Positions 973 through 20,000 of a DNA stretch of 20,000 bases are shown one piece after another. Position 1 is the stretch's first letter; each line of letters begins with the position of its first letter. A program made the translations under genes and the position numbers. The notes beneath the pieces were generated by a model. The model did not search any database. It saw only the letters and a list, made by a program, of their open reading frames with translations, and was not told where the DNA came from. Source of the DNA: Reclinomonas americana ATCC 50394 (Eukaryota). Where the stretch lies: contig PS015297.1 in NCBI GenBank assembly GCA_048213135.1, forward strand, positions 69,116 to 89,115. The letters are read 5' to 3'.

Positions 973-1045
973 ATGCGTCTTCTCACGCTCTCGTGCGTTC
1001 TCCTCGCGCTTCTCTGCGCTGCTTGCATCGTCAGCGTGGCACATG
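973..1045 (+). CDS. Exon 1: signal peptide MRLLTLSCVLLALLCAACIVSVAH
   Basis: ATG at 973, basic residue plus hydrophobic core, then canonical donor GTGAGT at 1046 (phase 1), frame-compatible with the phase-1 acceptor at 2040. Small intervening exons within 1174-1680 cannot be excluded. Confidence 0.8.
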
Positions 1046-1496
1046 GTGAGTCACACGCACACCACCAGCACACACATTCTCGGGCACACACAACACTTGT
1101 TGTTGCGCAGCACACGCTGCAAGTATGTTCACACTCACACACTCGTCTCTCTCTCTTTCCTCTGGCGTGGCAGTGATCCTTCTGCACACTCGTTGCACAT
1201 TGTGTGTGTGAGGCACTGCTTTGTGTGTGAGATTGGGGCTTGGTGTGCTGGCGAAAATGTCCGCGTGCGCGCACTTGGTTTCCGAGTCTCCCTCAGATTC
1301 TGAGAGATACCCACGCCGCGTCTGCACGCGGAGGAGGTGGGGAACATGCAGCGCGCGCGAGAGAGGACACTGAGTGAAGAAAAAAGTAAAGAGAGAGAGA
1401 GAGAGAGAGGAGTGAGAGAGAAAGAAAACAGACACGCGCTGCGACTTGTACAATTCGGGCATGCATGGGTGTGAAAAAAACGAGACGTGTGTGTGT

Positions 1497-1534
<38 letters not shown>

Positions 1535-3892
1535 GATGATGGAGGCGAATGCACATGCTAATGCATTGGGCGAGCAGTGCGCGTCGCATATCGTGTCTCG
1601 CCAGTCGCAGTGTCGACGACGATTTGTCATTTGTCCGTCTAGTGGCTCGGGGAATGTGCTGCGTGTGAGACAAGAACCTCGGGTCATTCTCTCTCTCTCT
1701 CTCACACACACACTCACTCTCTCTCTCTCTCTTCACACGCACCCCACTCTCACTCTCTTTATGTCAATGATGTTGCTGTGAGGGCGTCTTGAAGCAGCTG
1801 CATTCTAGTGTCTCACGTGCATTGTCACCACGCATAGCACACTCGCTCACATGCACACCCGAAATGCGAATTCTCTCTCTCTCTCTCTCACTCTCTCTCC
1901 CCCCTCCCTCCCCTCCCTCACCCTTGCGCTATATCCATTCGCCTGTCGCAGCCTCTCTCTCTCTCTCCTCTCTCTCCCCTTCTCCCGTCCCCCCTTATTC
2001 TTCTCTCACCCTGGTGCTCATCCCGTTCGTCTCCCACAGCTTCTTCGGCGACGACCAACGCCGCCACCTCCATCTCGACTGTGACGGCGACGCTCAACGC
2101 GTCCGTCGACAACACGTCTGCTTCGCCGAGCAACAACTACTTTGAGCTGGCCGTCGATAGCACGGATTTCACCACGGCGTCGGTGGTCAGTACTTTTGCC
2201 GGCAGCATTGGAACGCACGCGTTCCAGAACGACGATCGACTGCATGCGACGTTTGATAGCCCTGTCGTTGAGTGTCACCTGCTGAAGATCATCACGGGGA
2301 TATTCGTTGTTGAATTCGAATCACTAACACACACACGCACACGTGTTGTGTGCGAGTAGGGGATGACGTCGGATGCACGCGGCAATCTATATGTCGCCGA
2401 CTACCAGTTGCGTAGATGTCTGCATGTATTGCCGTGAGGATGATGCCTTGATTTGATGCTGACTTGTGCGGGCGTGCAGCAATCAATGCATTCGATTCGT
2501 TGATATTCACTCGGGAGATGTGTCGACATACACGGGCGGATGTGGCCAGCCGTACGGCTACGTGAATGGCGGTCCCTCTGCTGCGCTTTTTTACAAGTTG
2601 CGTTGATCGGCTCTTGTGTACGTGTGGGGTATTCTCTCTCACGGGGGCTTCACGATGCTGACGTCGACACGATGCTGCTACAAAACACAGTCCTGTGGGA
2701 TTAGACATGGATCGGCAGACGACGACGCTCTATGTTGGTGATGTGCGTTCCTCACAGTGAGGCGTGAGCGCTATGTGTGGTATCTGTTCTGGCCTTCTCT
2801 AAGTGCGGTGCCTGCTGTCGTGTGGCTTGGTGGACCGTTTTGGTTGACGCCATTTCACTTTGTTTGTTGCGCTTTTATTATATCGTTCCTGATGCGCGGT
2901 TGAAGAGCTGTTTCATCTGTTCAACGTGCTATCGTCTCTCTCTCTCTCTCCCTCTCTCTCTCCCTCTGCTGTACGGCCAAGGCGATCGTACGTACAGCAG
3001 ACACACTCGTCTCTCTCTCTTTCCGTGGCGTGGCAGTTATCCTTATGACACTCGTCGTTCTATATNNNNNNNNNNNNNNNNNNNNNNNNNNNNNNNNNNN
3101 NNNNNNNNNNNNNNNNNNNNNNNNNNNNNNNNNNNNNNNNNNNNNNNNNNNNNNNNNNNNNNNNNNNNNNNNNNNNNNNNNNNNNNNNNNNNNNNNNNNN
3201 NNNNNNNNNNNNNNNNNNNNNNNNNNNNNNNNNNNNNNNNNNNNNNNNNNNNNNNNNNNNNNNNNNNNNNNNNNNNNNNNNNNNNNNNNNNNNNNNNNNN
3301 NNNNNNNNNNNNNNNNNNNNNNNNNNNNNNNNNNNNNNNNNNNNNNNNNNNNNNNNNNNNNNNNNNNNNNNNNNNNNNNNNNNNNNNNNNNNNNNNNNNN
3401 NNNNNNNNNNNNNNNNNNNNNNNNNNNNNNNNNNNNNNNNNNNNNNNNNNNNNNNNNNNNNNNNNNNNNNNNNNNNNNNNNNNNNNNNNNNNNNNNNNNN
3501 NNNNNNNNNNNNNNNNNNNNNNNNNNNNNNNNNNNNNNNNNNNNNNNNNNNNNNNNNNNNNNNNNNNNNNNNNNNNNNNNNNNNNNNNNNNNNNNNNNNN
3601 NNNNNNNNNNNNNNNNNNNNNNNNNNNNNNNNNNNNNNNNNNNNNNNNNNNNNNNNNNNNNNNNNNNNNNNNNNNNNNNNNNNNNNNNNNNNNNNNNNNN
3701 NNNNNNNNNNNNNNNNNNNNNNNNNNNNNNNNNNNNNNNNNNNNNNNNNNNNNNNNNNNNNNNNNNNNNNNNNNNNNNNNNNNNNNNNNNNNNNNNNNNN
3801 NNNNNNNNNNNNNNNNNNNNNNNNNNNNNNNNNNNNNNNNNNNNNNNNNNNNNNNNNNNNNNNNNNNNNNNNNNNNNNNNNNNNNNNNNNNN

Positions 3893-3925
<33 letters not shown>

Positions 3926-5640
3926 TCTCTCTCTCTCTCCTCTCTACCTCTCTCCTCTCCTCTCGTCTACTTCCTTTCCTTCTCTTACTTCTCTCGTCTC
4001 TCCTCCTCCTCCTCCTCCTCCTCCTCCTCCTCCTCCTCCTCCTCCTCCTCCTCCTCCTCCTCCTCCTCCTCCTCCTCCTCCTCCTCCTCCTCCTCCTCCT
4101 CTTCCTCCTCCTCTCTCTCTCTCTCACTGATCGCTGCCACCACCCAGGCCGACAACAACGCCGTTCGCTCGGTGACCTCTGATCGGACGACGTCCACCTT
4201 GGTGGACAACAGCACCAACTTGAATGGCTCGCCTGCGCTTGACAGTGTGTTCAATGTCGCCTTCGATTCGTCGTCGCAGAGTGTGTACTTTATCTCGTAC
4301 AACACGCACACCATTCGGTACGTGTGATTGTGTGAATTCGCCCATCGACTGTATTTCGGATGTTCACTTGGTGGTCGGTGTATGTAGTCGCATCAAGAAT
4401 GACGGAACTGGCGCGATGGTGTTCTGCGGACAGCACAATACGAGCGGAACAACCAATGGTGACTGTGGGACGGCCACGTTCACTCAGCCGTCTTCAATTG
4501 CGGTGGACCAGGCACGAAATGTGCTGTACGTTGGCTCCGGTACTAACATGGTCATTCGGCAAATCGATTTGGCTTCGAACCAAGTGACGACAATTGCGGG
4601 CACTGGGGCGACTGGATCGGCGGACGGGTCTGCGCTGAGCGCGACGTTTCAGTCGACGATTAGCGTGGTTCTGGATGTCACGCGCGACGTGTTGTACGTT
4701 GGCGAACGCAACAACGGAAGTATCCGCCAACTTGACCTGTCGAGCGCGAACGTCTCGACCATTGTCAATGGACCGAGTGGCACTGTGAATGGCTCGCTTG
4801 CAAGTGCGCGATTCCAGTATGCGGTAAGCGATTCTCATCCATTTTGTGTTGGCTGATCTATGCTGTGACTCAACAGCAATCGATCTGACACTGTTCTGTT
4901 TGTGCAGTTCGGCATGGTCGTCAACGGTAATCGGTTGTACGTCACCGGTGAGCTGAGCAGAATGAAGAGGAGAGTGAGTAATCCATTGGTTGTGTAGTGC
5001 ATCTGACGATGGTCTTTTGTGCAGACTTTTCCGGGAGTGTGATACATGTTATCAAGTTTCAACCATCGTCTACGCGGCTCACGGCATCGCCGAGCACCAC
5101 CGGGGCCACCACTTCGGTGTCGGTATCCAAGGCTGTCTCGCAGCTCAACAGCGGAGCGACGTACTATTACCGTGCGGTGACCGTGCTCTCCGACTCGACG
5201 GTGTTGAATGGGTCGACGCTGTCGTTCACAAGTGCGTCTCCGCCGAGCTTGTACATTTACTCGTGNNNNNNNNNNNNNNNNNNNNNNNNNNNNNNNNNNN
5301 NNNNNNNNNNNNNNNNNNNNNNNNNNNNNNNNNNNNNNNNNNNNNNNNNNNNNNNNNNNNNNNNNNNNNNNNNNNNNNNNNNNNNNNNNNNNNNNNNNNN
5401 NNNNNNNNNNNNNNNNNNNNNNNNNNNNNNNNNNNNNNNNNNNNNNNNNNNNNNNNNNNNNNNNNNNNNNNNNNNNNNNNNNNNNNNNNNNNNNNNNNNN
5501 NNNNNNNNNNNNNNNNNNNNNNNNNNNNNNNNNNNNNNNNNNNNNNNNNNNNNNNNNNNNNNNNNNNNNNNNNNNNNNNNNNNNNNNNNNNNNNNNNNNN
5601 NNNNNNNNNNNNNNNNNNTTGTGTAATACTTCTTCCTCTC

Positions 5641-5691
<51 letters not shown>

Positions 5692-6142
5692 CTTCTCGTG
5701 GATTCAACAGCTGCACTTGCGACGAGCAGCGCGGCGACTGCAGTGGCGACTTACACGGCGACTGTGAATGGGTCTATCACGAACAACTCGGGTGCCACTA
5801 GCAGCAACTTTTTCGAACTGGCGCGATCGAGCAGCGACTTCACGACTGTGTCATCGGTGACGACATATGCTGGTACCCTGAACACTCCTGGAACTACCAA
5901 TGGCCCACGCGCGAGTGCACTATTCAATGATCCGCGAGTTACGTCTCGACTGCCATTGCTGGCAGTTGTGTACGACCATGAATGATGTTTCTCCTGACAC
6001 ATGTGACGCATCGTGATGTGCTGGCACTGCAGGCTATTGTTGGCGACTCTGAGGGCAGTTTGTATCTGGTGGAATCAGGGTTGCGTGCTCGTGTCGTTTC
6101 GTGTTCGGCGAAGCTGTCGGTTTGTACGCTTACTGTCTTGCT

Positions 6143-6220
<78 letters not shown>

Positions 6221-7537
6221 TGTGTTGTTCTGTTCTCTCGAGTAGCAATAGCTGCATTCGATACATTGATGCGTCGTCCGGCATGGTGTCGACGTTTGCC
6301 GGCGTGTGTGGTGCAAGTGGTGCACTGGTGGATGGCGCGGCGTCTACGGCGCGGTTCAACAGGTGCGTGCGGGTTTGTGGTATCTGAAATCATTTCATTT
6401 GACTGACATGATGCCGATAATGCTTTGTGCTCGTGTGCAGTCCACGAGGCATCGCCATTGATCTGGAGTCGAGCACGCTGTTTGTTGCTGATGTGCGTGG
6501 GTTCATTATCTTCACATGCTTGCTTTCTCTCTCTTACAAACACTATGTACACGGCGTGCACTCTCCATTCCTGTCTCACCATCCTGTCGCTTTGGGACTT
6601 GGGATTCCCTTCGTTGCTGCATGATTTGTTCACCTCTGCTTGACTGAAGGTGTTGGCTATCAGTGTCTCTGTGAGCTCACTCTTCTTTCACCACAGACCG
6701 CAAACAACGCACTTCGACGAGTGTCATCGACTGGGTACACGACGACGCTGGTCACAAGCAGTAGCGCCTCACCGGCTCCAGACTTCATCTACAGCGTTGT
6801 TTACGATGCGAGCAACCAGGTGTTGTACTTTTCCGAATTCAACCAACATACTGTGCGGTGAGTGGCGCGTGGAAAGTGAGCATGGTGCAATAGAGGAAAG
6901 ATGTGACTTATGTATTACTGAGTTGCTCGGATAATAGTAGTATTTACCAGGTTGACTGCCTTCGTTGTGACTTTCGTTTTGTGGTAGTCTTCTTCCATTT
7001 TCTTTTTGCTGATGTGTCATTTGCATTTGCTGACTCTTGTTTGCTACCGGTCACAGGCGTGTGAACGTCGACGGCTCGTCCATCACCCTGCTGTGCGGTC
7101 AGTATGGTACTTCTGGTGCTGATGACGGCGACTGCTCGACTACTACACCAACTTTCAACGAACCCGCGGGACTGGTACTCGATCTGTCGGTCAATATGCT
7201 ATACGTGGGATCGAAGAGCGGACGCAAGGTTAGGCAGCTGGACTTGGCGGCGAGTCCCATCCAGCTTGGCACTCTTGTTGGCCAAAATACCAGTGGGTTC
7301 ATCGTGGGTGCCGCTGCCGCTGCCCTGTTTGTGGAACCGCGCTCGCTATATCTGGACGAAGTGCGACGGATTCTGTACATTGGGGATTCTTCAGTGGGCA
7401 TCAAGCAGCTCGATCTCACCACCATGATCGTGTCTGCTCTCACAATGCCTGCACTGGGTGCTCTCCCTGTCGATGGGCCAATGACAGATGCGATTGTTGC
7501 CACACCGGTGCGTGTATACTGTGCTGAGTGTGTGTTG

Positions 7538-7569
<32 letters not shown>

Positions 7570-7633
7570 NNNNNNNNNNNNNNNNNNNNCGTACGTACGT
7601 ACGTACGTACGTACGTACGTACGTACGTACGTA

Positions 7634-7672
<39 letters not shown>

Positions 7673-7680
7673 TCGTCGTC

Positions 7681-7769
<89 letters not shown>

Positions 7770-10700
7770 TCTCTCTCGCGTGTTCGTTTGTCAAGTGCAT
7801 TTGAATGCATGTGCGCGTGTATTTTTGCTTGCTTGTCTTTGAATGCTGTGCGCTTTCCCACCCGTGCACTGGCTGATTGCCGCATTGCGTGTTGCAATTT
7901 GTGTCACTTATCTGCTCAATTTTGCAGCATGGCATGTACTTGGCGCAAGGCAATCAACTCTATGTTACCGGTGAGTTGGGAAGTTCTTTTCTTGCACTTG
8001 ATAGATAATGGAAACTGTGCGACTCATTGTGTTTCATTTGTATCAGAGTTTTCCGGTTTGACTGGAGTCGGTCACACGGTTCGATTGATCACGTTGCAGC
8101 CTGGGGAGTGCCGAATCACTGGTGGTCCATCGACGAGCGCGTCAGGATCGACCAGCAGCATCAGTGATGCACTGTCGCAGCTGACGCCTGGATCCGTCAG
8201 CTATTTCCGTGCAGTGACTGTGCTGTCGGATTCGACCGTGGTGGTTGGATCGACGCTGTCGTTCACGACGAGTTGCGTTGGCGATTGAGTGGTTCTCCTC
8301 TTGACTGTCATGGTTTCTGAATCCACTTCGCCTCGTCTTAGATGTTGCACCGTCCGTGACAAGCTTTTCGCCGAGCAGCATTATTGCGGAGACGAGTGGC
8401 GCGCAAATTGTGTTGACGGGCACGGCGTTGCAGGCAGCAGATGTAGTACAAGTGCAGATGGGAGCGGACTGCACGGGTGGCGGCACAGCACTGTCGTCGG
8501 TGTCTGTGACCGGGGATGGAATGACGAAGACGGTGCAGACGAACAGCCTGTCTCTGGCAGTGGGATCGTATGTTTTGTGGTGCGTTTTGTGACGGAGAGG
8601 AAGCAAGAGTGTGACAGTGAAGGAGTGCCGGAGATAGAAAGAAATGGGAAGGCGCGATGTACGAATGTTAGTGCCTGTTTCCCTGCGGTTTAGAAGAGAA
8701 AGGGAGCGAGCATAGGCGAATCATCGAATTTGATAGTTGTTGTTAGTAGTGGGTGTAGCTGTTCTCTAGAGTGTTTGTTTGTAAGCAATTGTGGTCTATG
8801 GAAAGTCATGGGAGAAAGATGAATGAGGGGCAGTTTGAAGGCTGGTATCGAGCCGAGTCGATATGAAACTGACTGCTTGATCTCAACAGCATCCAGTTTG
8901 GAGGAACGGGACTGTGGAGCACTGTGCCGGGGACGTTGTCTGTAGGTGAGCGTGTGTTGCGTGCGAGTTTGTGTATGCGCGCGTTTGCGTGCGAGTGTGT
9001 TTGTGCTTGTCAGACTATACAAGGCTCACGCTACTGTTGATGTTCGGCGCATGCAGTACCGTCTGCGGACTCGTACACACCGGCGAGCATCACGAGCGAG
9101 ACGACGGGACAGAGTGTGACGGTGACCGGCCATGGTCTCACGGCCAGTGACGACGTGAAGCTTGTGTCTGGAACTGGGTGCTCTGGATCGCCGTCGTACA
9201 GCATGACGAGTGGATCGCTGGGCGGGTCAGCGGGTGCACGGACGTTGACGGTGACGACAAGTGATGTGAATCTGACGCCGGCGGGACAGTATTCTGTGTG
9301 GTATGTTTGCACCATGGGTGGTGGTTGTGGGTTGTTCTTGTCTCTTTGCACATACTGCTCTTGCTTGGAAAGGAAAAGTCGCATTGCCACTAACTTGATG
9401 TGGTTGTGTGTGTGTGTGTTTTTCTTCGTGTTCTGTGTCCGACAACCATGCAGCTATCGATTCAACGGCACGGCGTCGTATGTGCAAGTGACATCGACGC
9501 TGGTGACAGTCAGTTTCGTCATTGTATGGAAGCGGGGAGAGAGAGAAAGAGAAAGAGAGAGAGGGAGAGAGAAANNNNNNNNNNNNNNNNNNNNNNNNNN
9601 NNNNNNNNNNNNNNNNNNNNNNNNNNNNNNNNNNNNNNNNNNNNNNNNNNNNNNNNNNNNNNNNNNNNNNNNNNNNNNNNNNNNNNNNNNNNNNNNNNNN
9701 NNNNNNNNNNNNNNNNNNNNNNNNNNNNNNNNNNNNNNNNNNNNNNNNNNNNNNNNNNNNNNNNNNNNNNNNNNNNNNNNNNNNNNNNNNNNNNNNNNNN
9801 NNNNNNNNNNNNNNNNAACGTACAATCGATTGCCGGTGACAAGGAAGCCATACTGAACACAAAACAACGATGAGAGATACGGTGGTCACCCGCACTTGAG
9901 ACATATCAACCGAAATAAAACAGTGCTTACCGGATTCGGTATCCGCGCATTTGCAAGTGAACCGTACCGAAGACCGCCGCCCGAGAGGATAGTCGACACA
10001 GTCATACTCGATAGGTCGAGCTGCCGAATTCTGTTTAGTGAGCCTTCGCTAATGTACAACACATCGCGGTTGGCGTCGAAGCCAATATAGGGTGTCTGGA
10101 AGAATCTTGCGCTGAGTGCAGATCCGTCTGTCGATCCAGTGCTGCCAGTGCCCGCAATCGTCGTCACTTGATTCGTGGCAAGGTCAATTTGTCGAATTAC
10201 CGGAGATAGTCCAGAAGAGCCCACATACAGCACATTGCGTGTTTGATCCAATGCAAGCGACATCGGGAGGTTGAACTTGGCTTGCGTCACACAATCGCCA
10301 TTGACAGTTCCAGTAGAACTCTGTTGGCCACAAAACAACGTCATGCCAGTCCCGTCACTCTTGATTCGTCTAATGCATCGGCAAACAAGTCAGAGTTGAC
10401 ACAACAACAAAAACTTAGTCAGTGGCGCGCGTACCGAATATTACTCGAGTTATACACAACGATGTATACGTACTGCGTCGACGAATCGTACGCGACATCG
10501 AATACATTCAACATCACCGGTGAGCCATTCAAGTTGGTGCTGTTGTCCACCAAAGTCGACGTCGTCCGATCTGAGGTCACTTTGCGCACCGCGTTGTTGT
10601 TGTTCTGCAGATGACAAAAATTGAGGTCATNNNNNNNNNNNNNNNNNNNNNNNNNNNNNNNNNNNNNNNNNNNNNNNNNNNNNNNNNNNNNNNNNNNNNN

Positions 10701-13700
10701 NNNNNNNNNNNNNNNNNNNNNNNNNNNNNNNNNNNNNNNNNNNNNNNNNNNNNNNNNNNNNNNNNNNNNNNNNNNNNNNNNNNNNNNNNNNNNNNNNNNN
10801 NNNNNNNNNNNNNNNNNNNNNNNNNNNNNNNNNNNNNNNNNNNNNNNNNNNNNNNNNNNNNNNNNNNNNNNNNNNNNNNNNNNNNNNNNNNNNNNNNNNN
10901 NNNNNNNNNNNNNNNNNNNNNNNNNNNNNNNNNNNNNNNNNNNNNNNNNNNNNNNNNNNNNNNNNNNNNNNNNNNNNNNNNNNNNNNNNNNNNNNNNNNN
11001 NNNNNNNNNNNNNNNNNNNNNNNNNNNNNNNNNNNNNNNNNNNNNNNNNNNNNNNNNNNNNNNNNNNNNNNNNNNNNNNNNNNNNNNNNNNNNNNGTGCT
11101 GTCGGATTCGACTGCTGTGGCTGGATCGACGCTGTCGTTCACGACGAGTTACTTCGCGGAATGCGTCGTTCTTTATGCGCAGAGTCGCTGGTTTCTTACT
11201 CCGCTCTCCCCGCACCAGATGTTGCACCGGCCGTGACGAGCTTTTCGCCGAGCAGCATCATCGCGGAGACGAGTGGCGTGCAAATTGTGTTGACGGGTAC
11301 GGCGTTGCAGGCAGCAGATGTTGTGCAAGTTGAACTGGGACTGGATTGCACGGGTGGCGGTACATCACTGACGTTTGTGTCGGTGGCGGGGGATGAATCG
11401 ACAGAGACTGTGCAGACGAACAGCCTGTCTCTGGCAGTGGGATCGTATGTTTTGTGGTGCGTTTGCGGTGGCGACAAGAGGGGAGGCATTGAGGGTGGAA
11501 GAGGAAATGTAGGGCGAGATGAGTAGGATTGAGAAGCCAGATCGCATGCGTCATCTTGCGGGGCAGGCAGAGAGAGACAGCAAGGCCGAAGGAAACAGTA
11601 AGTGTGTTCGAAAGTGGTCGTTGTTTGGGGGAACAGTGTTTGTGTCGGCGAGGTAGAGATTTGCGTGAGTGACGGATGACACGTGTGGTTAAAAGAACAA
11701 GTGTGCGTAATGGAGAGACTTGAAAGTGTGGGAGTGAGTGTGAGTATGTGATCAATCGTGTTTGTGGATGGAGTATCTCACCGAGACTTGTTGTTCTGCG
11801 CTGTCCTCAACAGCATCAAGTTTGGCGGAACGGGACTGTACAGTACAGTGCAGGGGACGCTGTCTGTTGGTGAGTGTGTGTTTATATGCGTGTGCACTCG
11901 GTGGTTGGCAAAACGAGAAGAGTTCATACTGACGTTGATGTTCGACGCTTGCAGTGGCATCTTCGGACTCGTATTCACCGTCGTATATCGCACCATTAAC
12001 GACTGGGCAGACGATGACTGTGACTGGACGAGCGTTGGCCGCGAGCGATAAAGTGCGGTTGGTATCTGGTGGCACATGCACGAGTGGCACGACGACGTAC
12101 AACATGACGAGCGGAGCAGTGGGTGGATCGGCGGGAGCGCGCACACTGTCAGCGTCGACTGGTAGCAGTACTCTTGCGGCCGGCTCGTATCTCGTGTGGT
12201 GCGTTTTGTTGCTTGATGTGCCAGTTCTGCAGCTGCTTCTCGTTTCCCGCGCTTGGCTCATGTGTTTGCGTATTTCTCGTCGCAGTTATCAGTACAATGG
12301 GGTGGGTTCGTTTGTGCAAGTCGGCAGTACGTCACTTGTCGTTGCAGCAGGTTTNNNNNNNNNNNNNNNNNNNNNNNNNNNNNNNNNNNNNNNNNNNNNN
12401 NNNNNNNNNNNNNNNNNNNNNNNNNNNNNNNNNNNNNNNNNNNNNNNNNNNNNNNNNNNNNNNNNNNNNNNNNNNNNNNNNNNNNNNNNNNNNNNNNNNN
12501 NNNNNNNNNNNNNNNNNNNNNNNNNNNNNNNNNNNNNNNNNNNNNNNNNNNNNNNNNNNNNNNNNNNNNNNNNNNNNNNNNNNNNNNNNNNNNNNNNNNN
12601 NNNNNNNNNNNNNNNNNNNNNNNNNNNNNNNNNNNNNNNNNNNNNNNNNNNNNNNNNNNNNNNNNNNNNNNNNNNNNNNNNNNNNNNNNNNNNNNNNNNN
12701 NNNNNNNNNNNNNNNNNNNNNNNNNNNNNNNNNNNNNNNNNNNNNNNNNNNNNNNNNNNNNNNNNNNNNNNNNNNNNNNNNNNNNNNNNNNNNNNNNNNN
12801 NNNNNNNNNNNNNNNNNNNNNNNNNNNNNNNNNNNNNNNNNNNNNNNNNNNNNNNNNNNNNNNNNNNNNNNNNNNNNNNNNNNNNNNNNNNNNNNNNNNN
12901 NNNNNNNNNNNNNNNNNNNNNNNNNNNNNNNNNNNNNNNNNNNNNNNNNNNNNNNNNNNNNNNNNNNNNNNNNNNNNNNNNNNNNNNNNNNNGTGTTTTT
13001 GCGGCACTGCATCATGTTGTTCGTTGTACGTGGATTGTTTCATTGTGTGTTTGACATATTCTGTGGGCGTCTCTCCTTGTGTTCCTGTGGTGCAGTGATG
13101 AGCTTCTCGCCGAGCAGCATCATTGCGGAGACGAGTGGCGTGCAAGTGACTGTGAGTGGCAGCGGTCTGTCGGATGCGGATGTTGTGCAAGTCGAGAGTG
13201 CGGGTGCGTGCACGGGTGCTGGCACTGTGCTGGCTCTTGTTTCGACGCCAGTCAATCGGCTTACGACGATTCGACAAACGACGAGCACGTCGCTGGGTGT
13301 TGGATCGTATTGGGTGTGGTGCGTGTCATGTTTTTTGTGAGCACGAGTTGGGGAGGTGATAGCGAGAAGCGCGCTGTCTGTCAAGTGAGAACAGTACATG
13401 TGACAGAGGCGGAGGAAGAGGCAGAGAGAAACGATGAAGAAAGGAAGTCTTTTTAGTGTCGCGCATATGAAAACACACGACGCTTTGGGTTTTTGTCATA
13501 CACTAATTGGTGTGTTTTTGTTGCACAGTATTCATTTTGCGGGTACGGATGCTGGAGTGTGGCTGCAAGTTCCTGGCGTGTTGGATGTTGGTGCGTGTAT
13601 ACGTCATTCGGAAGTGTGTTATGAGGTGCAGGGTTGCGACTCATTTTTTGAGTACTATTGTTGTTGCTTTGGTTTATGTGTATGTGTGTAGTACCGTCTG

Positions 13701-13995
13701 CGGACTCGTACACACCGGCGAGCATCACGATTGAGACGACGGGTCAGAGTGTGACGGTGACTGGCCATGGTCTCACGGCCAGTGACGATGTGAGGCTTGT
13801 GTCTGGATCTGGGTGCTCTGGATCGCCGTCGTACAGCATGACGAGTGGATCGCTGGGCGGGTCAGTGGGTGCATGGACGCTGACGGTGACGACGAGTGAT
13901 GTGAATCTGACGCCGGCGGGACAGTATTCTGTGTGGTTCGTCTTTCGCTATCCGCATTGGTGTTGCTGAGAAGAGAGTCGGCTTGTCACTGACCC

Positions 13996-14036
<41 letters not shown>

Positions 14037-15043
14037 GCGGTGACAACCGTGCAGCTATCGGTTCAACGGCGCGGGGGCATATGTGCAAGTGACATCGACG
14101 CTTTTGAATGTCAGCTGAGTGATTATGTGTAAAAGAATGTGTGTGCGAGAGAGAAAGAATGTGTGTGTTAGAGAGAGAATGTGAGTGCGGGAGAGTTAGT
14201 GTGATTTAAGTTGTACATGTCGAAGGATCTAACATATATGCGCCTCCACTCCTCCCCTCTCCCTTTCGGTTTTCTTCCGTTTTCTCTCCTCCCATTTTTG
14301 CAGACAAATTGGCGGAGTCATTCACGCCGAGTTCGATTGTGGCGGAGACGAGTGGACAGACGATTACGGTGACTGGACGTGGTCTGACGACGGCCGATGC
14401 GATTCGTCTGGTGCTCGGTGCTTCGTGTGGCGGAGCGACGACGTACGATCTGACGGTGGGATCGGCGGGTGGTGTTGCTGGAGCACGGACTGTGGTTGGT
14501 ACAGTGTCGGATGTGAATCTGACGCCGGCCGGATCGTATGTGGTGTGGTGAGTGTGTGTGGAGATGAGATGTGATGAGGTGTAGAGGGATTTATAGTTAT
14601 TGTTGTTGTTTGTTGTCGTTATTTTTAATGTGAGTCTTTGCATTTAATGCGATTTTCTGCTGTTTCGACTGAACGTGTTGTGCATGGAACAGCTACCAGT
14701 ACAACAACACTGGATCGATTGTGGCGCTGTCGGGAGCACTGAGCGTGTGTTGCGTACTGTTTCTTTCATTGTAGTTGTTTTGTGTTGTTGTGATGTTGTT
14801 GGATTGTGTTTCATTGTGAATGGGATTACAGCCAAGCTGGCGGAGTCATTCTCTCCAGCTGCAGTCGGTGCCAGTACAGCCGGAGAGACGGTGACTGTGA
14901 CTGGACGCGCGTTGACAGCAACTGATGTTGTGCGATTGGTGTCTGGCGGCGGTGGCACGTGTACGACTGGCACGACGACGTACGACATGGNNNNNNNNNN
15001 NNNNNNNNNNGTTAGTTGTAGTAGTGTTGTTGTTTGTTTGTTG

Positions 15044-15120
<77 letters not shown>

Positions 15121-16352
15121 ATTGGTTTGTGTTCAGTTACTTGTATGGCGGTGTTGGCACGCCTGTGCAAGTCGGCAGCACTTCGTTGCTTGTTGCTGCA
15201 GGTCTGTGTGTCTTCGCGGTGATAAATATTCGATCGTCTGTGTCTTGTGTTGCTGACATTTGTGTGTGATTGCAGTGACGAGCTTCTCGCCGAGCAGCAT
15301 CGTTGCGGAGACGAGTGGCGTGCAAGTGACTGTGAGTGGCAGTGGTCTGTCGGATGCGGATGTGGTGCAGGTGCAGAGTGCGGGTACGTGCACGGGTGCT
15401 GGCACTGTGCTGGCTCTTGTTTCGACGGCAGTCGATGGTCTGACGACGATTCGACAAACGACGAGCACCTCGCTTGGTGTTGGATCGTATTGGGTGTGGT
15501 GCGTGTCATGGGTTTTTGTGAGCACGAGTTTTTGGAGGCGACAGTAAGAAGCGCGATGTCTGTCAAGTGAGAACATTGCATGTCGTTGAAAGAGAGAGCG
15601 AGAGAGAGAGAGAGGGAGAGAGAGGGGAAGACAATAGGGGAAGAGAGAAAGAGTGTTTCGTGGGATGCTCTTCTTTTTCTCCAGGCACTGATCGTTGCAT
15701 GTTGTTTGCGTTCTCAGCATTCACTTTGGAGGAGCGCAAGCCGGAGTGTGGCTGCAAGTTCCTGGCGTGTTGGCTATCGGTACGTGTGTGCTGTGCGTCC
15801 ATGGATGTATGTTATGAGGCGACTCATTTTTTGAGTACTGTTGTTGTTGCATTGGTTCATGTGTGTGTGTGTGTAGTACCGTCTGCGGACTCGTACACAC
15901 CGGCGAGCATCACGAGTGAGACGACGGGACAGAGTGTGACGGTGACTGGCCGTGGTCTCACGGCCAGTGACGATGTGAGGCTTGTTTCTGGAACTGGGTG
16001 CTCTGGATCGCCGTCGTACAGCATGACGAGTGGATCGCTGGGCGGGTCAGCGGGTGCATGGACATTGACGGTGACGACAAGTGATGTGAATCTGACGCCG
16101 GCGGGACAGTATTCTGTGTGGTATGTTTGCACCATGGGTGGTGGTTGTGGGTTGTTCTTGTCTCTTTGCACATACTGCTCTTGCTTGGAAAGGAAAAGTC
16201 GCATTGCCACTAACTTGATGTGGTTGTGTGTGTTTGTTTTTTCTTCGTGTTTTGCGTCTGACACCAATGCAGCTATCGATTCAACGGCACGGGGGCATAT
16301 GTGCAAGTGACATCGACGCTGGTGACAGTCAGTTTCGTCATTGTATGGAAGC

Positions 16353-16412
<60 letters not shown>

Positions 16413-19400
16413 AATGGGGAGCATGTGTCGTTGCATGCTGTTTGCTACTCCTCTCTTCCTGTCTAGTCCCTTTCTCTTTTCTTTATTTCTTCTTTTTCTT
16501 CTTATTGTTGATTGTTCTGCAGACAAACTGGCGGAGTCATTCACGCCGAGTTCGATTGTTGCGGAGACGAGTGGACAGACGATCACGGTGACTGGACGTG
16601 GTCTGACGACGGCCGATGCGATTCGTCTGGTGCTCGGTGCTTCGTGTGGCGGAGCGACGACGTACGATCTGGCTGTGGGATCGGCGGGTGGTGTTGCGGG
16701 AGCACGGGCTGTTGTTGGCACAGTGTCGGATGTGAATCTGACGCCGGCCGGATCGTATGTGGTGTGGTGAGTGTGTGTGTGTTGAGATGAATGGGGTGAG
16801 ATGGAGGGATTTTGATGGTCGTGCTTGTTGTTGCTCTGTTGTGTTTGCAAATATTGTCTTTTTTATGCAATTTTCTGCTGGTCCGACTGACGTGTTGTGC
16901 ATGGAACAGCTACCAGTACAACAGCACTGGATCGTTTGTGGCGCTGATGGGAGCACTGACCGTGTGTTGCGTCCTGTATATTTTGTTTCATCGTGTAGTG
17001 TCGTTCGTTTCTGTCTCTTTGTCTCTCTCTCTGTCTCTCTGTCTCTCTCTCTCTGTCTCTCTCTCTGTCTCTCTCTCTCTCCCCACGATTGCTCATTTCG
17101 TCTTGTCGGTTTGTAACTCGCATCGTAGCCAAGCTGGCGGCGTCTTACACCCCGGCTACGATTCTGCCGAATAGCACTGGAAGGACAGTGACTGTGACTG
17201 GACGCGCGTTGACAGCAATTGATGTTGTGCGATTGGTCTCCGGTGGCGGCGGTACGTGCACAAGTGGCACGACGACGTACGACATGACGAGCGGAGCAGT
17301 GGGTGGATCGGCGGGAGCGCGCACACTGGCGACGTCGACTAGTAACAGCAGTCTCGCGGCTGGATCGTATCTCGTGTGGTACGCTCATGGCGCCTGCATT
17401 TTGTGTCTCTCCTCTGCTCGGTTTGTTTGACATCCTCGTGATTTTGTGCAGTTACTTGTACGATGGAGTGGGCACGCCTGTGCAAGTCGGCAGCGCATTG
17501 TTGCTTGTGGCCGCAGGTCTATTTTCTTCGCTTTTGTTGTTTTGCCTGGCCCGTGGCACTCACGTCTGTGTTCTGTTCGCACTAGCGTCATCGGCGACTA
17601 CCAGCGCTGTCTCTTCTGTTTCGACACAGACTGCGACACTGAACGGCCTTGTTACCAATATTTCTGCGTCGGCGAGCAGCAACTACTTTGAGCTGGCCGT
17701 CGACAGCGCAGATTTCTCGGTAGCGTCGGNNNNNNNNNNNNNNNNNNNNATGCCCTCAATGCTTGTCATCGCCCACCGTACAGAACAACAACAACGCGGT
17801 GCGCAAAGTGACCGCTAATCGGATGACGTCAACTTTGGTGGACAACAGCACCAATTTGAATGGCTCGCCGGCGATGTCACGTGTGTTCGATGTCGCGTAC
17901 GATTCGTCGACGCAGTACGTTTATATCGTTGTGAACAACTCGAGTAATATTCGGTACGCGCGCCACTAGTGCACTGACTAAGTTTTCGTTGTTGTGTCAA
18001 CTCTGACTTGTTTGCCGATGCATTAGACGAATCAAGAGTGACGGGACTGGCATGACGTTGTTTTGTGGCCAACAGAGTTCTACTGGAACTGTCAATGGCG
18101 ATTGTGTGACGCAAGCCAAGTTCAACCTCCCGACATCGCTTGCATTGGATCAAACACGCAATGTGCTGTATGTGGGCTCTTCTGGACTATCTCCGGTAAT
18201 TCGACAAATTGACCTTGCCACGAATCAAGTGACGACGATTGCGGGCACTGGCAGCACTGGATCGACAGACGGACCTGCACTCAGCGCAAGATTCTTCCAG
18301 ACAACATATATTGGCTTCGACGCCAACCGCGATGTGTTGTACATTGGCGAAATCTCGCAAAACAGAATTCGTCAGCTCAATCTATCTACTATGACTGTGT
18401 CGACTCCCCTCTCGGGCGTCGGTATTCAGTACGGTTCACTGACAAGTGCGCGGATACAGAATGCGGTAAGCACTGTTTTATTTCGGTTGATATGTCTCAA
18501 GTGCGGGTGACCACCGTATCTCTCATCGTTGTTTTGTGTTCAGTATGGCTTCCTTGTCAACGGCAATCGATTGTACTTTNNNNNNNNNNNNNNNNNNNNN
18601 NNNNNNNNNNNNNNNNNNNNNNNNNNNNNNNNNNNNNNNNNNNNNNNNNNNNNNNNNNNNNNNNNNNNNNNNNNNNNNNNNNNNNNNNNNNNNNNNNNNN
18701 NNNNNNNNNNNNNNNNNNNNNNNNNNNNNNNNNNNNNNNNNNNNNNNNNNNNNNNNNNNNNNNNNGCTCGATATGATTCGCTGTTTGCTCACTATCATCT
18801 CCCGCCCTTCCCCGCCCTTCCCTCAACATTTATTCACAGACCGCAAACAACGCCCTTCGGCGAGTGTCTTCAACTGGATACACAAGGACGTTGGTCAGGA
18901 GCACCAGCGCAACGCCGGCTCCGGACTTCATCTACAGTGTGGCATACGACGCGGGGAATCAGGTGGTGTATTTCTCCGAGTTTGACATGCACACTGTGCG
19001 GTGAGTGACACACAGCAAACGAGCGTGGTGAAATAGAGCAAGTGAGAGTGGAGTCAGTGGAACAAAACATTCTGATTGTGTCACAGACGTGTGAATGCCG
19101 ATGGCTCGTCCATCACACTGCTGTGTGGTCTATACGGAAGTTCTGGTTCTACCGATGGCTCCTGCTCGTCCACTACGACGAGGTTTAACGAACCCGCGGG
19201 GTTGGCGTTGGATTTGACAGCCAACAAGCTGTATGTGGGATCGAGGCAAGGCTACAAAATTCGGCAGCTGGACTTGGCATCTTCTCCGATGCAGCTTGGC
19301 ACTCTTGCGGGCACGAATACACAGGGGTACGCTGTGGGTCCAGCTGCAACTGCCGAGTTCCAGACTCCACTCGCACTATATTTGGACGACGTGCGACGGA

Positions 19401-20000
19401 TCCTGTACATTGCTGATGCTACCGTTGGCGTCAAACAACTCGATCTCAACACCATGCTGGTCTCAATTGTCTCAGCGCCTGCGCTGACTGTTGGCCCAGT
19501 GGACGGACCATTGACAGACGCCATCGTGCATTCGCCGGTGTGTTCAATTGTATGTAGTTGCAAGTAGTGAGCAGTTGCTTTGCGCGTATTTGGTTGTGCA
19601 CCTGTCAGTCTTGTTGGTCCATCGCGAGCAGGCATCGCCATCTATGTGGGCCAGTTAGGGTCTGCACACAGTATTGTGATTCAGTGTCTTTTGCTGAGTC
19701 GTGCTTCACATTTACAGTTTGGCATGTACTTGGCGCAAGGCAATCTACTCTATGTGACCGGTGAGTTGAAAAATGTGTTGTCCATCTTTACAACTACACT
19801 TCCACTTATCGGATCTCTTTCCATCAGAATATCTCGTGTCTACAGGTTTGGGTCACGTTATTCGATTGATCACGCTGCAGCCCAGTGATTGCCGCATCAC
19901 TGCTGGCCCATCGACAAGCGCGTCTGGATCGACCAGCAGCATCAGTGACGCACTGTCGCAGCTGACGCCTGCATCGGTCAACTATTTCCGTGTGGTGACC
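973..20000 (+). CDS. Giant multi-exon secreted/cell-surface protein with repeated FN3::NHL-propeller modules and IPT/TIG-like Ig repeats; 3'-partial and gap-interrupted
   Basis: Exons bounded by YAG acceptors and GT (one GC) donors splice in frame without stops. Paralogous exons have matching lengths (e.g. 227/47/117/52 nt in modules 1 and 2; 244/59 nt in three Ig-B copies). Branch-point-like CTGAC/CTAAC precede many acceptors (e.g. ~2324, 2459, 4885, 7030, 15253). The gene continues past the window end. Continuity across gaps is inferred. Confidence 0.85.
1390..1985. repeat. Intronic (GA)n tracts (~1390-1421, 1501-1529) followed by (CT)n/pyrimidine tracts (~1687-1735, 1872-1985)
   Basis: Directly visible simple repeats. 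Confidence 0.9.
2040..5231 (+). CDS. Module 1 (type a): split FN3-like domain containing a six-bladed NHL beta-propeller, 432 aa
   Basis: Exons 2040-2266, 2360-2406, 2480-2596, 2691-2742, 4148-4317, 4388-4823, 4908-4947, 5025-5231 (sum 1296 nt). NHL motifs include FDSPVGMTSDARGNLYVADYHNQCIR, FYNPVGLDMD..TLYVGDADNNAVR, FTQPSSIAVD..VLYVGS and VTTIAGTGATGSADG. FN3-like ends are ATTNAATSISTVTATLN..YFEL and LNSGATYYYRAV..GSTLSFT. Confidence 0.85.
3893..4125. repeat. Intronic (CT)n + (CCT)n microsatellite
   Basis: A (CCT)n run at ~4001-4110 flanked by CT repeats, just upstream of the acceptor at 4147. Confidence 0.95.
5643..5688. repeat. Intronic (CT)n microsatellite
   Basis: Direct observation; upstream of the acceptor at 5710. 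Confidence 0.95.
5711..8271 (+). CDS. Module 2 (type b): split FN3-like domain containing a six-bladed NHL beta-propeller, 441 aa
   Basis: Exons 5711-5937, 6033-6079, 6246-6362, 6441-6492, 6697-6857, 7057-7507, 7928-7970, 8047-8271 (sum 1323 nt), with the same intron positions and phases as module 1. Motifs include FNSPRGIAIDLESSTLFVADTANNALR, FNEPAGLVLD and LTPGSVSYFRAV..GSTLSFTT. Confidence 0.85.
6144..6218. repeat. Intronic (GT)n microsatellite
   Basis: Direct observation. Similar (TG)n runs occur at ~13997-14031 and ~15045-15119. Confidence 0.95.
7541..7776. repeat. Compound intronic microsatellite (CT)n-gap-(GTAC)11-(GTC)n-(CT)n
   Basis: Direct observation. Confidence 0.95.
8342..8945 (+). 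CDS. IPT/TIG-like Ig domain subtype A, copy 1 (98 aa)
   Basis: Exons 8342-8579 and 8890-8945: PSVTSFSPSSIIAETSGAQIVLTG..DC..GSYVLC|IQFGG..GTLSV. The start resembles the IPT/TIG P-x-V/I-T-S-x-S-P..V-T-I/L-T-G pattern (by eye). Confidence 0.75.
9057..9512 (+). CDS. IPT/TIG-like Ig domain subtype B, copy 1 (101 aa)
   Basis: Exons 9057-9300 and 9454-9512: VPSADSYTPASITSETTGQSVTVTG..GC..AGQYSVC|YRFNG..LVTV. Confidence 0.75.
9817..10604 (-). CDS. Inverted fragment of a type-a NHL propeller module (blades 2-6, partial)
   Basis: Minus-strand exons 10604-10435, 10369-9931 and 9852-9817 with GT-AG introns. Lengths (170, 439 nt) and sequence match + strand 17784-18579. Flanked on both sides by N-gaps. 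Confidence 0.85.
11096..11147 (+). CDS. 3' end of an FN3-closing exon (VLSDSTAVAGSTLSFTT) of a module otherwise lost in the gap
   Basis: Near-identical to 8220-8271; followed by donor GTTACT at 11148 and an Ig-A exon, as at 8272-8342. Confidence 0.8.
11219..11869 (+). CDS. IPT/TIG-like Ig domain subtype A, copy 2
   Basis: Exons 11219-11456 (238 nt) and 11814-11869 (56 nt), the same lengths as copy 1. Confidence 0.75.
11955..12350 (+). CDS. IPT/TIG-like Ig domain subtype D with a B-like N-terminus (103 aa)
   Basis: Exons 11955-12198 and 12286-12350: VASSDSYSPSY..GGTCTSG..AAGSYLVC|YQYNG..LVVAA. Confidence 0.75.
13096..15201 (+). CDS. Ig block 1: subtypes E-B-C-D (four IPT/TIG-like domains)
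   Basis: E 13096-13318 + 13529-13590; B 13692-13935 + 14055-14113; C 14304-14547 + 14693-14748; D 14832-14990 (cut by gap) + 15137-15201. All junctions are in frame. Confidence 0.8.
14114..14303 (+). other. Probable GC-AG intron with donor GCTGAGT
   Basis: Paralogous 59-nt exons end at the same base (GTC A|gtttcgt at 9513 and 16332). Read-through hits TGA immediately, and the next exon requires phase 1. Confidence 0.75.
15276..17516 (+). CDS. Ig block 2: subtypes E-B-C-D (tandem duplicate of block 1)
   Basis: E 15276-15498 + 15718-15779; B 15877-16120 + 16273-16331; C 16523-16766 + 16910-16965; D 17129-17378 + 17452-17516. Offset from block 1 is about 2.2-2.3 kb. Confidence 0.8.
16352..16413. 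repeat. Intronic (GA)n microsatellite
   Basis: Direct observation. A paralogous tract lies at ~9538-9574 and another GA tract at ~15590-15630. Confidence 0.9.
17586..18579 (+). CDS. FN3::NHL module, type a (partial, gap-interrupted)
   Basis: Exons 17586-17729 (SSATTSAVSSVSTQTATLNGLV..NYFELAVDSADF, cut by gap), 17784-17953, 18027-18465 and 18544-18579; paralogous to module 1. Confidence 0.85.
18840..20000 (+). CDS. FN3::NHL module, type b (partial, continues beyond window)
   Basis: Exons 18840-19000, 19087-19537, 19718-19760 and 19828-20000+. Lengths 161/451/43 nt are identical to module 2 exons. Confidence 0.85.

Follow-up and report, generated by a model that had tools for sequence, protein, structure and literature searches.

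A candidate second class of 5' splice sites, with the donor signal displaced by one nucleotide, in an internally repeated gene of Reclinomonas americana

A stretch of 20,000 nucleotides (nt) from Reclinomonas americana ATCC 50394 (assembly GCA_048213135.1, contig PS015297.1, positions 69,116 to 89,115), referred to as the window, was analysed for the 5' splice sites (donors) of the gene that it carries. The window is 20 kilobases of a draft assembly, with 2771 N in nine runs, three of which are exactly 20 N long, and its G+C content outside these gaps is about 50-55%. From position 973 to 20000 the forward (+) strand carries a long, internally repeated gene, or its tandem copies, in which eight open-frame exon blocks with 46 modelled donors are interrupted by the nine N runs. 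In eleven of these donors the usual motif stands one base further into the intron, and these displaced donors are the subject of this report. The introns of the gene are dense in microsatellites of the types (CT)n, (GT)n, (GA)n, long (CCT)n, (ACGT)n and (CGT)n, found at 1370-2000, 3893-4110, 5640-5690, 6140-6215, 7540-7770, 14000-14030, 15040-15120, 16350-16410 and 17020-17080. The N runs probably conceal further repeat, because several of them adjoin microsatellites.

The gene starts with a signal-peptide exon (973-1045), followed by NHL/YncE-like propeller-blade units that are each trailed by strings of IPT/TIG-like modules. Single exons gave weak Pfam matches to NHL (E = 0.005) and TIG (E = 0.0006-0.002), all under the curated cut-offs, and among Atlas protein clusters only NHL was matched. 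An exhaustive phmmer search returned 11121 proteins at E<=0.001, which were giant multi-repeat propeller proteins, the best about 30% identical. Among the best 150 of these 11121 matches identity was never above 39%, and the ten of the 150 that were looked up were either unnamed or YncE, YvrE or mucin-like metagenome proteins. A separate homologous-protein search yielded 1256 candidates, none with E<=0.001, and a metagenome scan using the exon at 7058-7507 yielded 382 pattern matches with no relative among them. The product is probably a secreted propeller/Ig-module protein. A Ser/Thr/Ala-rich exon ('NYFELAVDS') opens each propeller unit and occurs three times, at 2040-2266, 5711-5937 and 17586-17729. 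This makes the locus a tandem array of super-units, each a propeller plus IPT modules, that may continue past the window.

An exon model was built on the + strand in eight blocks between the N runs, with exons joined by GT(GC)..AG introns, and each block formed a single open frame once joined. The model was made independently of an earlier reading of the same DNA by a model that saw the sequence alone (the sequence-only reading). That reading had placed 48 donors, which equals the 46 in our model plus two in an inverted near-copy. The near-copy, at 9817-10630, is identical to 17750-18579 as its reverse complement at 765 of 814 bases, sits between two N runs and holds copies of two introns; it may be either a mis-oriented scaffold contig or an inverted paralogue. 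Propeller units 1 and 2 have matching exon lengths of 47, 117 and 52 nt. Every IPT-like module contains a phase-2 intron within a conserved Cys codon (8580, 9301, 11457, 12199, 13319, 13936, 14548, 15499, 16121, 16767 and 17379), which is split TG/C or TG/T (a slash marks the cut) and whose third base differs synonymously among copies. This split codon and the conserved K of 'KLAES' both agree with the modelled junctions. The borders of the IPT modules are phase-1 introns throughout, and exon sets of such symmetry are typical of modules duplicated by exon shuffling.

The sequence-only reading had reported that about a quarter of the donors carry an extra base before the local motif, and that these lie at six independent intron positions. 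All eleven heptamers were found where it had placed them, and all are frame-keeping donors in the independent model, where they account for 11 of the 46 donors (about 24%) in one gene and group at about six positions. Three of these positions are in the propeller unit. The phase-0 donors GTC/GTTGAGT (2267-2273) and CGA/GTTACGT (5938-5944) are paralogues of each other, as are the phase-2 donors CCA/GTTGCGT (2407-2413) and AGG/GTTGCGT (6080-6086), the latter being the only one of the eleven with G at -1. The third position is occupied by the phase-2 donor CAA/GTTGCGT (2597-2603), the paralogue of which is the normal donor CAG/GTGCGT (6363-6368). This switch of class, from AA/GTTGCGT to AG/GTGCGT, had been noticed before and is real; the flanking paralogous exons are equal in length, including an exon of 117 nt in both units. 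The fourth position is the propeller-to-IPT border, with CGA/GTTGCGT at 8272-8278 and paralogues at 5232 (A/GTGCGT, normal) and 11148 (A/GTTACTT). The remaining two are types of IPT-to-IPT border. One comprises TCA/GTTTCGT at 9513-9519 and at 16332-16338, which are recent copies of each other, the acceptor of the former falling in a gap, together with their paralogue TCA/GCTGAGT at 14114-14120, a displaced GC donor. The other comprises the paralogues TGT/GTTGCGT at 14749-14755 and 16966-16972. The border introns are all in phase 1 and lie at homologous module edges.

The base composition of the eleven displaced donors was compared with that of the 34 other readable donors. At position -1 the displaced donors have A7, T2, C1 and G1, as the earlier reading had stated in noting the loss of G in ten and the presence of A in seven, and the others have G30, A2 and T2, in line with its claim that -1 G is nearly universal in canonical donors. 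Position +2 is T10, C1 in the displaced donors and T34 in the others. At +3 the displaced donors have T11, compared with G22, A8, C2 and T2; at +4 they have G8, A1 and T2, compared with C16, A13 and T5; at +5, C9 and A2, compared with G32 (n = 34); at +6, G11, compared with T28 and C6; and at +7, T11, compared with T13. Positions +4 to +7 of the displaced class mirror positions +3 to +6 of the normal class, and all eleven displaced donors combine T at +3, G at +6 and T at +7, as expected of a shifted register. The sequence-only reading had named a genome-wide GT peak at +6/+7 in donors with T at +3 as support for its idea. Within this gene GT stands at these positions in 11 of 13 readable +3 T donors, compared with 0 of the 32 other donors (Fisher p = 7.7e-9), and in 6 of 8 versus 0 of 9 when donors were collapsed by homologous intron position (p = 0.002). 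The difference at -1 was also significant, with G in 1 of 11 displaced donors and 30 of 34 others (p = 3e-6; collapsed, 1 of 7 versus 7 of 9, p = 0.04). A occupies -1 in 7 of 11 displaced donors; at -2 of the normal donors it is found in 7 of 34 (p = 0.02).

The pattern exceeds what chance would give, and its signal resides in the exact heptamers rather than in a loose pattern. GTTGCGT occurs seven times on the + strand, six times as a donor and once within an intron (8956), and once on the - strand, and the loose pattern G[TC]T[GAT]NGT occurs 49 times on the + strand, 11 of these being donors. The introns of the displaced class begin with GT in ten cases and GC in one, and end with AG at all ten acceptors outside gaps, as U2-type introns do. 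When the final 60 nt before the intron end were considered, the loose branch motif YTRAY was present in 6 of 10 displaced introns and in 21 of 32 others, figures that carry no chance control. The U12-type motif RTATCCTT was absent from all 46 donors, which rejects U12-type introns as candidates. In the normal class GTGCGT(G) predominates among the donors, and the CTGAC type among the branch motifs. The same gene also contains two donors with C at +3, 15202 (GTCTGT) and 17517 (GTCTAT), and two donors in the group of 15202, 17517 and 11148 lack G at +5 or +6. The donor requirements of this organism appear to be relaxed at +3 and less than absolute at +5.

Comparison of paralogues indicated that the displaced motif persists. 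The heptamer is identical at all seven bases in the pair 2407 and 6080 and in the pair 14749 and 16966, and the pair 2267 and 5938 has the common frame G-T-T-x-x-G-T. These pairs are old: in the last 30 exon bases 12 of 30 are identical for 2267 and 5938, and 14 of 30 for 2407 and 6080. In the 60 bases past the heptamer the old pairs match at 35-39 of 60 with gaps, which is no better than the unrelated-looking pair 2597 and 6363. The copies 9513 and 16332 are recent, with 51 of the 55 following bases identical. Bases +4/+5 of the displaced sites (GA, GC, AC, TC) vary as +3/+4 of normal donors do. This pattern resembles purifying selection on a displaced signal, and we take the second donor class to be real and selected, because the heptamer frame is kept in old paralogues while the intron bodies are randomised. 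Since exon lengths are equal across the class switch between 2597 and 6363, the difference there would be an intronic one-base indel plus a substitution at -1. The same unchanged lengths rule out sliding of the intron by 1 nt.

The placement of the junctions was assessed by frame and paralogy. In recent paralogues identity ends at the proposed donor and restarts straight after the proposed AG. Between 8272 and 11148, for example, 29 of 30 exon bases match before a diverged intron, and of the 25 exon bases that follow the AG nearly all match again. For the ten displaced introns with both ends available, a list was made of all frame-keeping GT/GC..AG pairs that lie no more than 30 nt from the two modelled ends; most of the alternatives add or remove residues relative to the paralogues. 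A GC donor 3 nt downstream (GTT/GCGT) was rejected as a general solution, since 5 of the 11 sites, those with GTTGAGT, GTTACGT or GTTTCGT among them, do not allow it, and neither does 11148. A cut one base downstream was also rejected, as it gives a TT..AGN intron in which both ends are non-canonical and the base after AG is patternless. The upstream GTNNGT at 14745, 16962 and 16328 consists of a Val codon and the real GT; its use needs the second AG and removes conserved residues, and it too was rejected. A Val codon plus one base before a phase-1 donor (14745 and 16962; 16328 and 14110) automatically places such a GTNNGT pseudo-donor 4 nt ahead of the real one. As its use breaks the frame unless the second AG 5 nt downstream is taken, it may give rise to unproductive alternative splicing. 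We judge the modelled placements to be sound.

These results suggest, with a probability that we put at roughly 60%, that the eleven sites are where ordinary U2-type introns (ten GT-AG and one GC-AG) truly begin, and that they make up a second class of donors, G-Y-U-(R/U)-N-G-U, read one nucleotide out of register. The motif, its placement and its conservation are observed; from them we infer the pairing registers, use in vivo and the frequency of the class in the genome. One extra U after GU would move the block R-N-G-U from positions +3 to +6 to positions +4 to +7, and the spliceosome would read the displaced sites one nucleotide off the usual register while the cut stays at the G of GU. U1 small nuclear RNA (snRNA) could accommodate this in either of two ways. 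It may pair with a shift of +1, intron G+1 then replacing exon G-1 and exon A-1 replacing A-2, or U+2 or U+3 may be bulged out of the helix. Base pairs (bp) were counted against the textbook U1 5' end, which may differ from the U1 of this organism. On average the displaced donors would form 4.36 bp in the canonical register, 6.82 bp when shifted by +1 and 7.00 bp with +3 bulged, and the corresponding values for normal donors are 7.71, 4.91 and 5.74 bp. We slightly prefer the +1 shift to the bulge in view of the loss of -1 G and the excess of -1 A. The -1 G should survive in a bulged helix, and its depletion here (1 of 11) argues mildly against the bulge. The invariant G has also moved from +5 to +6, so pairing with the ACAGA box of U6 snRNA would sit six, not five, bases from the cut, one base further away and with one nucleotide looped out. 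The sequence-only reading had proposed that this organism routinely uses a shifted or bulged register, possibly through variant U1/U6 snRNAs. Its proposal is supported only in part, as regards a signal displaced by one base and kept in old paralogues, the gain of about 2.5 bp with textbook U1 at the offset, and the loss of -1 G and excess of -1 A that fit a shift.

Several observations weigh against this interpretation. The pair counts do not separate the shift (6.82) from the bulge (7.00), codon constraints and paralogy weaken the argument for a shift from the -1 base, and U6 pairing six bases from the cut is without precedent in the literature found. Normal donors with A or T at -1 exist at 2743, 6493 and 5232, and therefore a non-G base at -1 does not oblige an extra U. 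Three further +3 T donors were absent from the list of the sequence-only reading. CGA/GTTACTT (11148-11154) has no G/T pair at +5/+6 or +6/+7 and is an exception to the class, and GTG/GTTCGT (13936-13941) is in the normal register with G at -1; the third, at 12351, reads GTTT and then enters a gap. All eleven sites belong to one internally repeated gene family, at only about six independent intron positions, and the three at IPT-module borders may be of common origin. The cut sites themselves were placed by frame and paralogy. The frame-keeping pairs per intron, the modelled pair included, numbered 3, 5, 8, 16, 17, 6, 5, 16, 9 and 9, and three alternatives are length-neutral (6055/6220, 14754/14836 and 16971/17133). 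The donors of these three lack G at +5, and two of them, 14754/14836 and 16971/17133, use the second AG and drop the conserved Lys of KLAES.

The range of 3 to 17 frame-keeping combinations at ten introns, the modelled one counted, gives some footing to the idea that the junctions are partly or wholly misplaced, a neighbouring GT or GC or another acceptor being used and the GTT motif being incidental. Every GTTGCGT also has a GC 3 nt downstream, and 14745 and 16962 offer GTGTGT with an AG 5 nt further on. The alternatives, however, change residues relative to the paralogues, skip the first AG or need GC donors without a consensus; the GC option is missing at GTTGAGT, GTTACGT, GTTTCGT and 11148; and exon lengths are equal between units, with paralogue identity stopping at the modelled boundaries. 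We consider misplacement improbable on these grounds. Far less credible still is an artefact of sequencing or assembly in which a surplus T was called after GT, even in a gap-rich draft with nine N runs, three of them exactly 20 N. Eleven distinct sites show the extra T, some of them in old paralogues whose flanking exon bases match at no more than 12-14 of 30. The extra T covaries with the exonic -1 base, and it is a change from one base to two rather than a slip in a long homopolymer.

The strongest competitor of a displaced register, though still an unlikely one, requires no special register at all: any base would be tolerated at +3/+4, donors would be selected by GU and exon-definition factors, and the G/T at +6/+7 would be read by another factor or simply inherited. 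The same gene does contain donors with C at +3 (15202, 17517), with T at +3 in the normal register (13936) and with T at +3 but no downstream GT (11148), and three groups of IPT-border introns may stem from a single intron. Simple tolerance does not account for a G/T pair that stands precisely one base further in at 11 of 13 readable +3 T donors versus 0 of 32 others, for a composition at +4/+5 that copies that of normal +3/+4, or for a seven-base frame kept in old paralogues despite randomised intron bodies. A dedicated U1 and/or U6 snRNA variant whose 5' end or ACAGA box had changed could instead pair perfectly with the GUU class, giving two kinds of major-type recognition. The class is discrete and conserved, as such a variant would predict, and variant U1 snRNAs are reported to exist in human cells; standard U1 already gains about 2.5 bp at the offset, so a variant is unneeded, and we give this explanation little weight. 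No snRNA gene was found in the window (0 Rfam matches at the gathering threshold).

A displaced register that is general would have wider consequences. Our more tentative proposal, which we hold at somewhat less than even odds, is that a second major-type donor class, G-Y-U-R-N-G-U, exists genome-wide at a tenth or more of all introns, with U1 and U6 both one nucleotide out of register and the cut six, not five, bases upstream of the U6-paired G. The distance from U6 pairing to cleavage has long been regarded as fixed (as described in PMC11162779), and if the proposal is true the rule relating the U6 helix to the catalytic centre would be elastic in nature. A lineage that held a quarter of a gene's donors at a +1 offset over long divergence would offer a natural experiment on the measurement of the cut site, and would also reveal what happens at exon ends that cannot have G at -1. 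In annotation of this genome, a gene finder that relies on one donor matrix would overlook these introns or score them wrongly.

A full-text literature search that covered neither supplementary files nor the two founding papers on registers returned no organism-wide class of displaced donors and no such heptamers at splice sites. Shifted and +2/+3-bulge registers of U1 and one non-canonical register of U6 have been proven in human cells (according to PMC4856993 and PMC11162779). In the shifted-register sites of Roca & Krainer (2009, NSMB; as cited in PMC4856993 and PMC11162779), U1 pairs one position downstream and cleavage stays at GU. As described there, these sites share with the displaced donors a GU followed by U at +3 and the remaining consensus one base further in. 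They differ in being some human sites, whereas here 11 of 46 donors of one gene are involved, with a GYGU/GAGU-type local consensus, loss of G at -1 and an invariant G at +6. In the bulge +2/+3 and +3 registers (Roca et al. 2012; Tan et al. 2016), one U is bulged from the helix between the 5' splice site and U1, and such sites likewise appear as one nucleotide inserted between +2 and +5 (PMC4856993). By the account in the same source, predicted human bulge sites number 68 (+2/+3) and 51 (+3) among 201,541, or about 0.06%, and all validated non-canonical registers make up 1.5% of human sites. In contrast, the displaced donors are about 24% of those in this gene and have lost G at -1, and offset registers could be much commoner in this organism than in human.

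The closest parallel for U6 is the non-canonical register at the STAT3 tandem donor (Kramarek et al. 2024, PMC11162779), where the G/U for the U6 ACAGA box likewise stands one base off its usual distance from the cut. As reported there, the displacement is in the opposite direction, GT standing at +4/+5 with the cut 4 nt upstream rather than 5; here GT stands at +6/+7 and the cut would lie 6 nt upstream. STAT3 is also a single human site, whereas the displaced donors form a class. The normal donors of the window, which are mostly GTGCGT(G) with CTGAC-type branch motifs, resemble those described for Ostreococcus, in which the lineage-specific donor consensus is GTGCGTG and the branch sites are ACTGAC (Irimia & Roy 2008, PMC2483917). 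Unlike the displaced class, the atypical consensus of Ostreococcus, as presented in that account, keeps the normal register, and the window analysed here is intron-rich.

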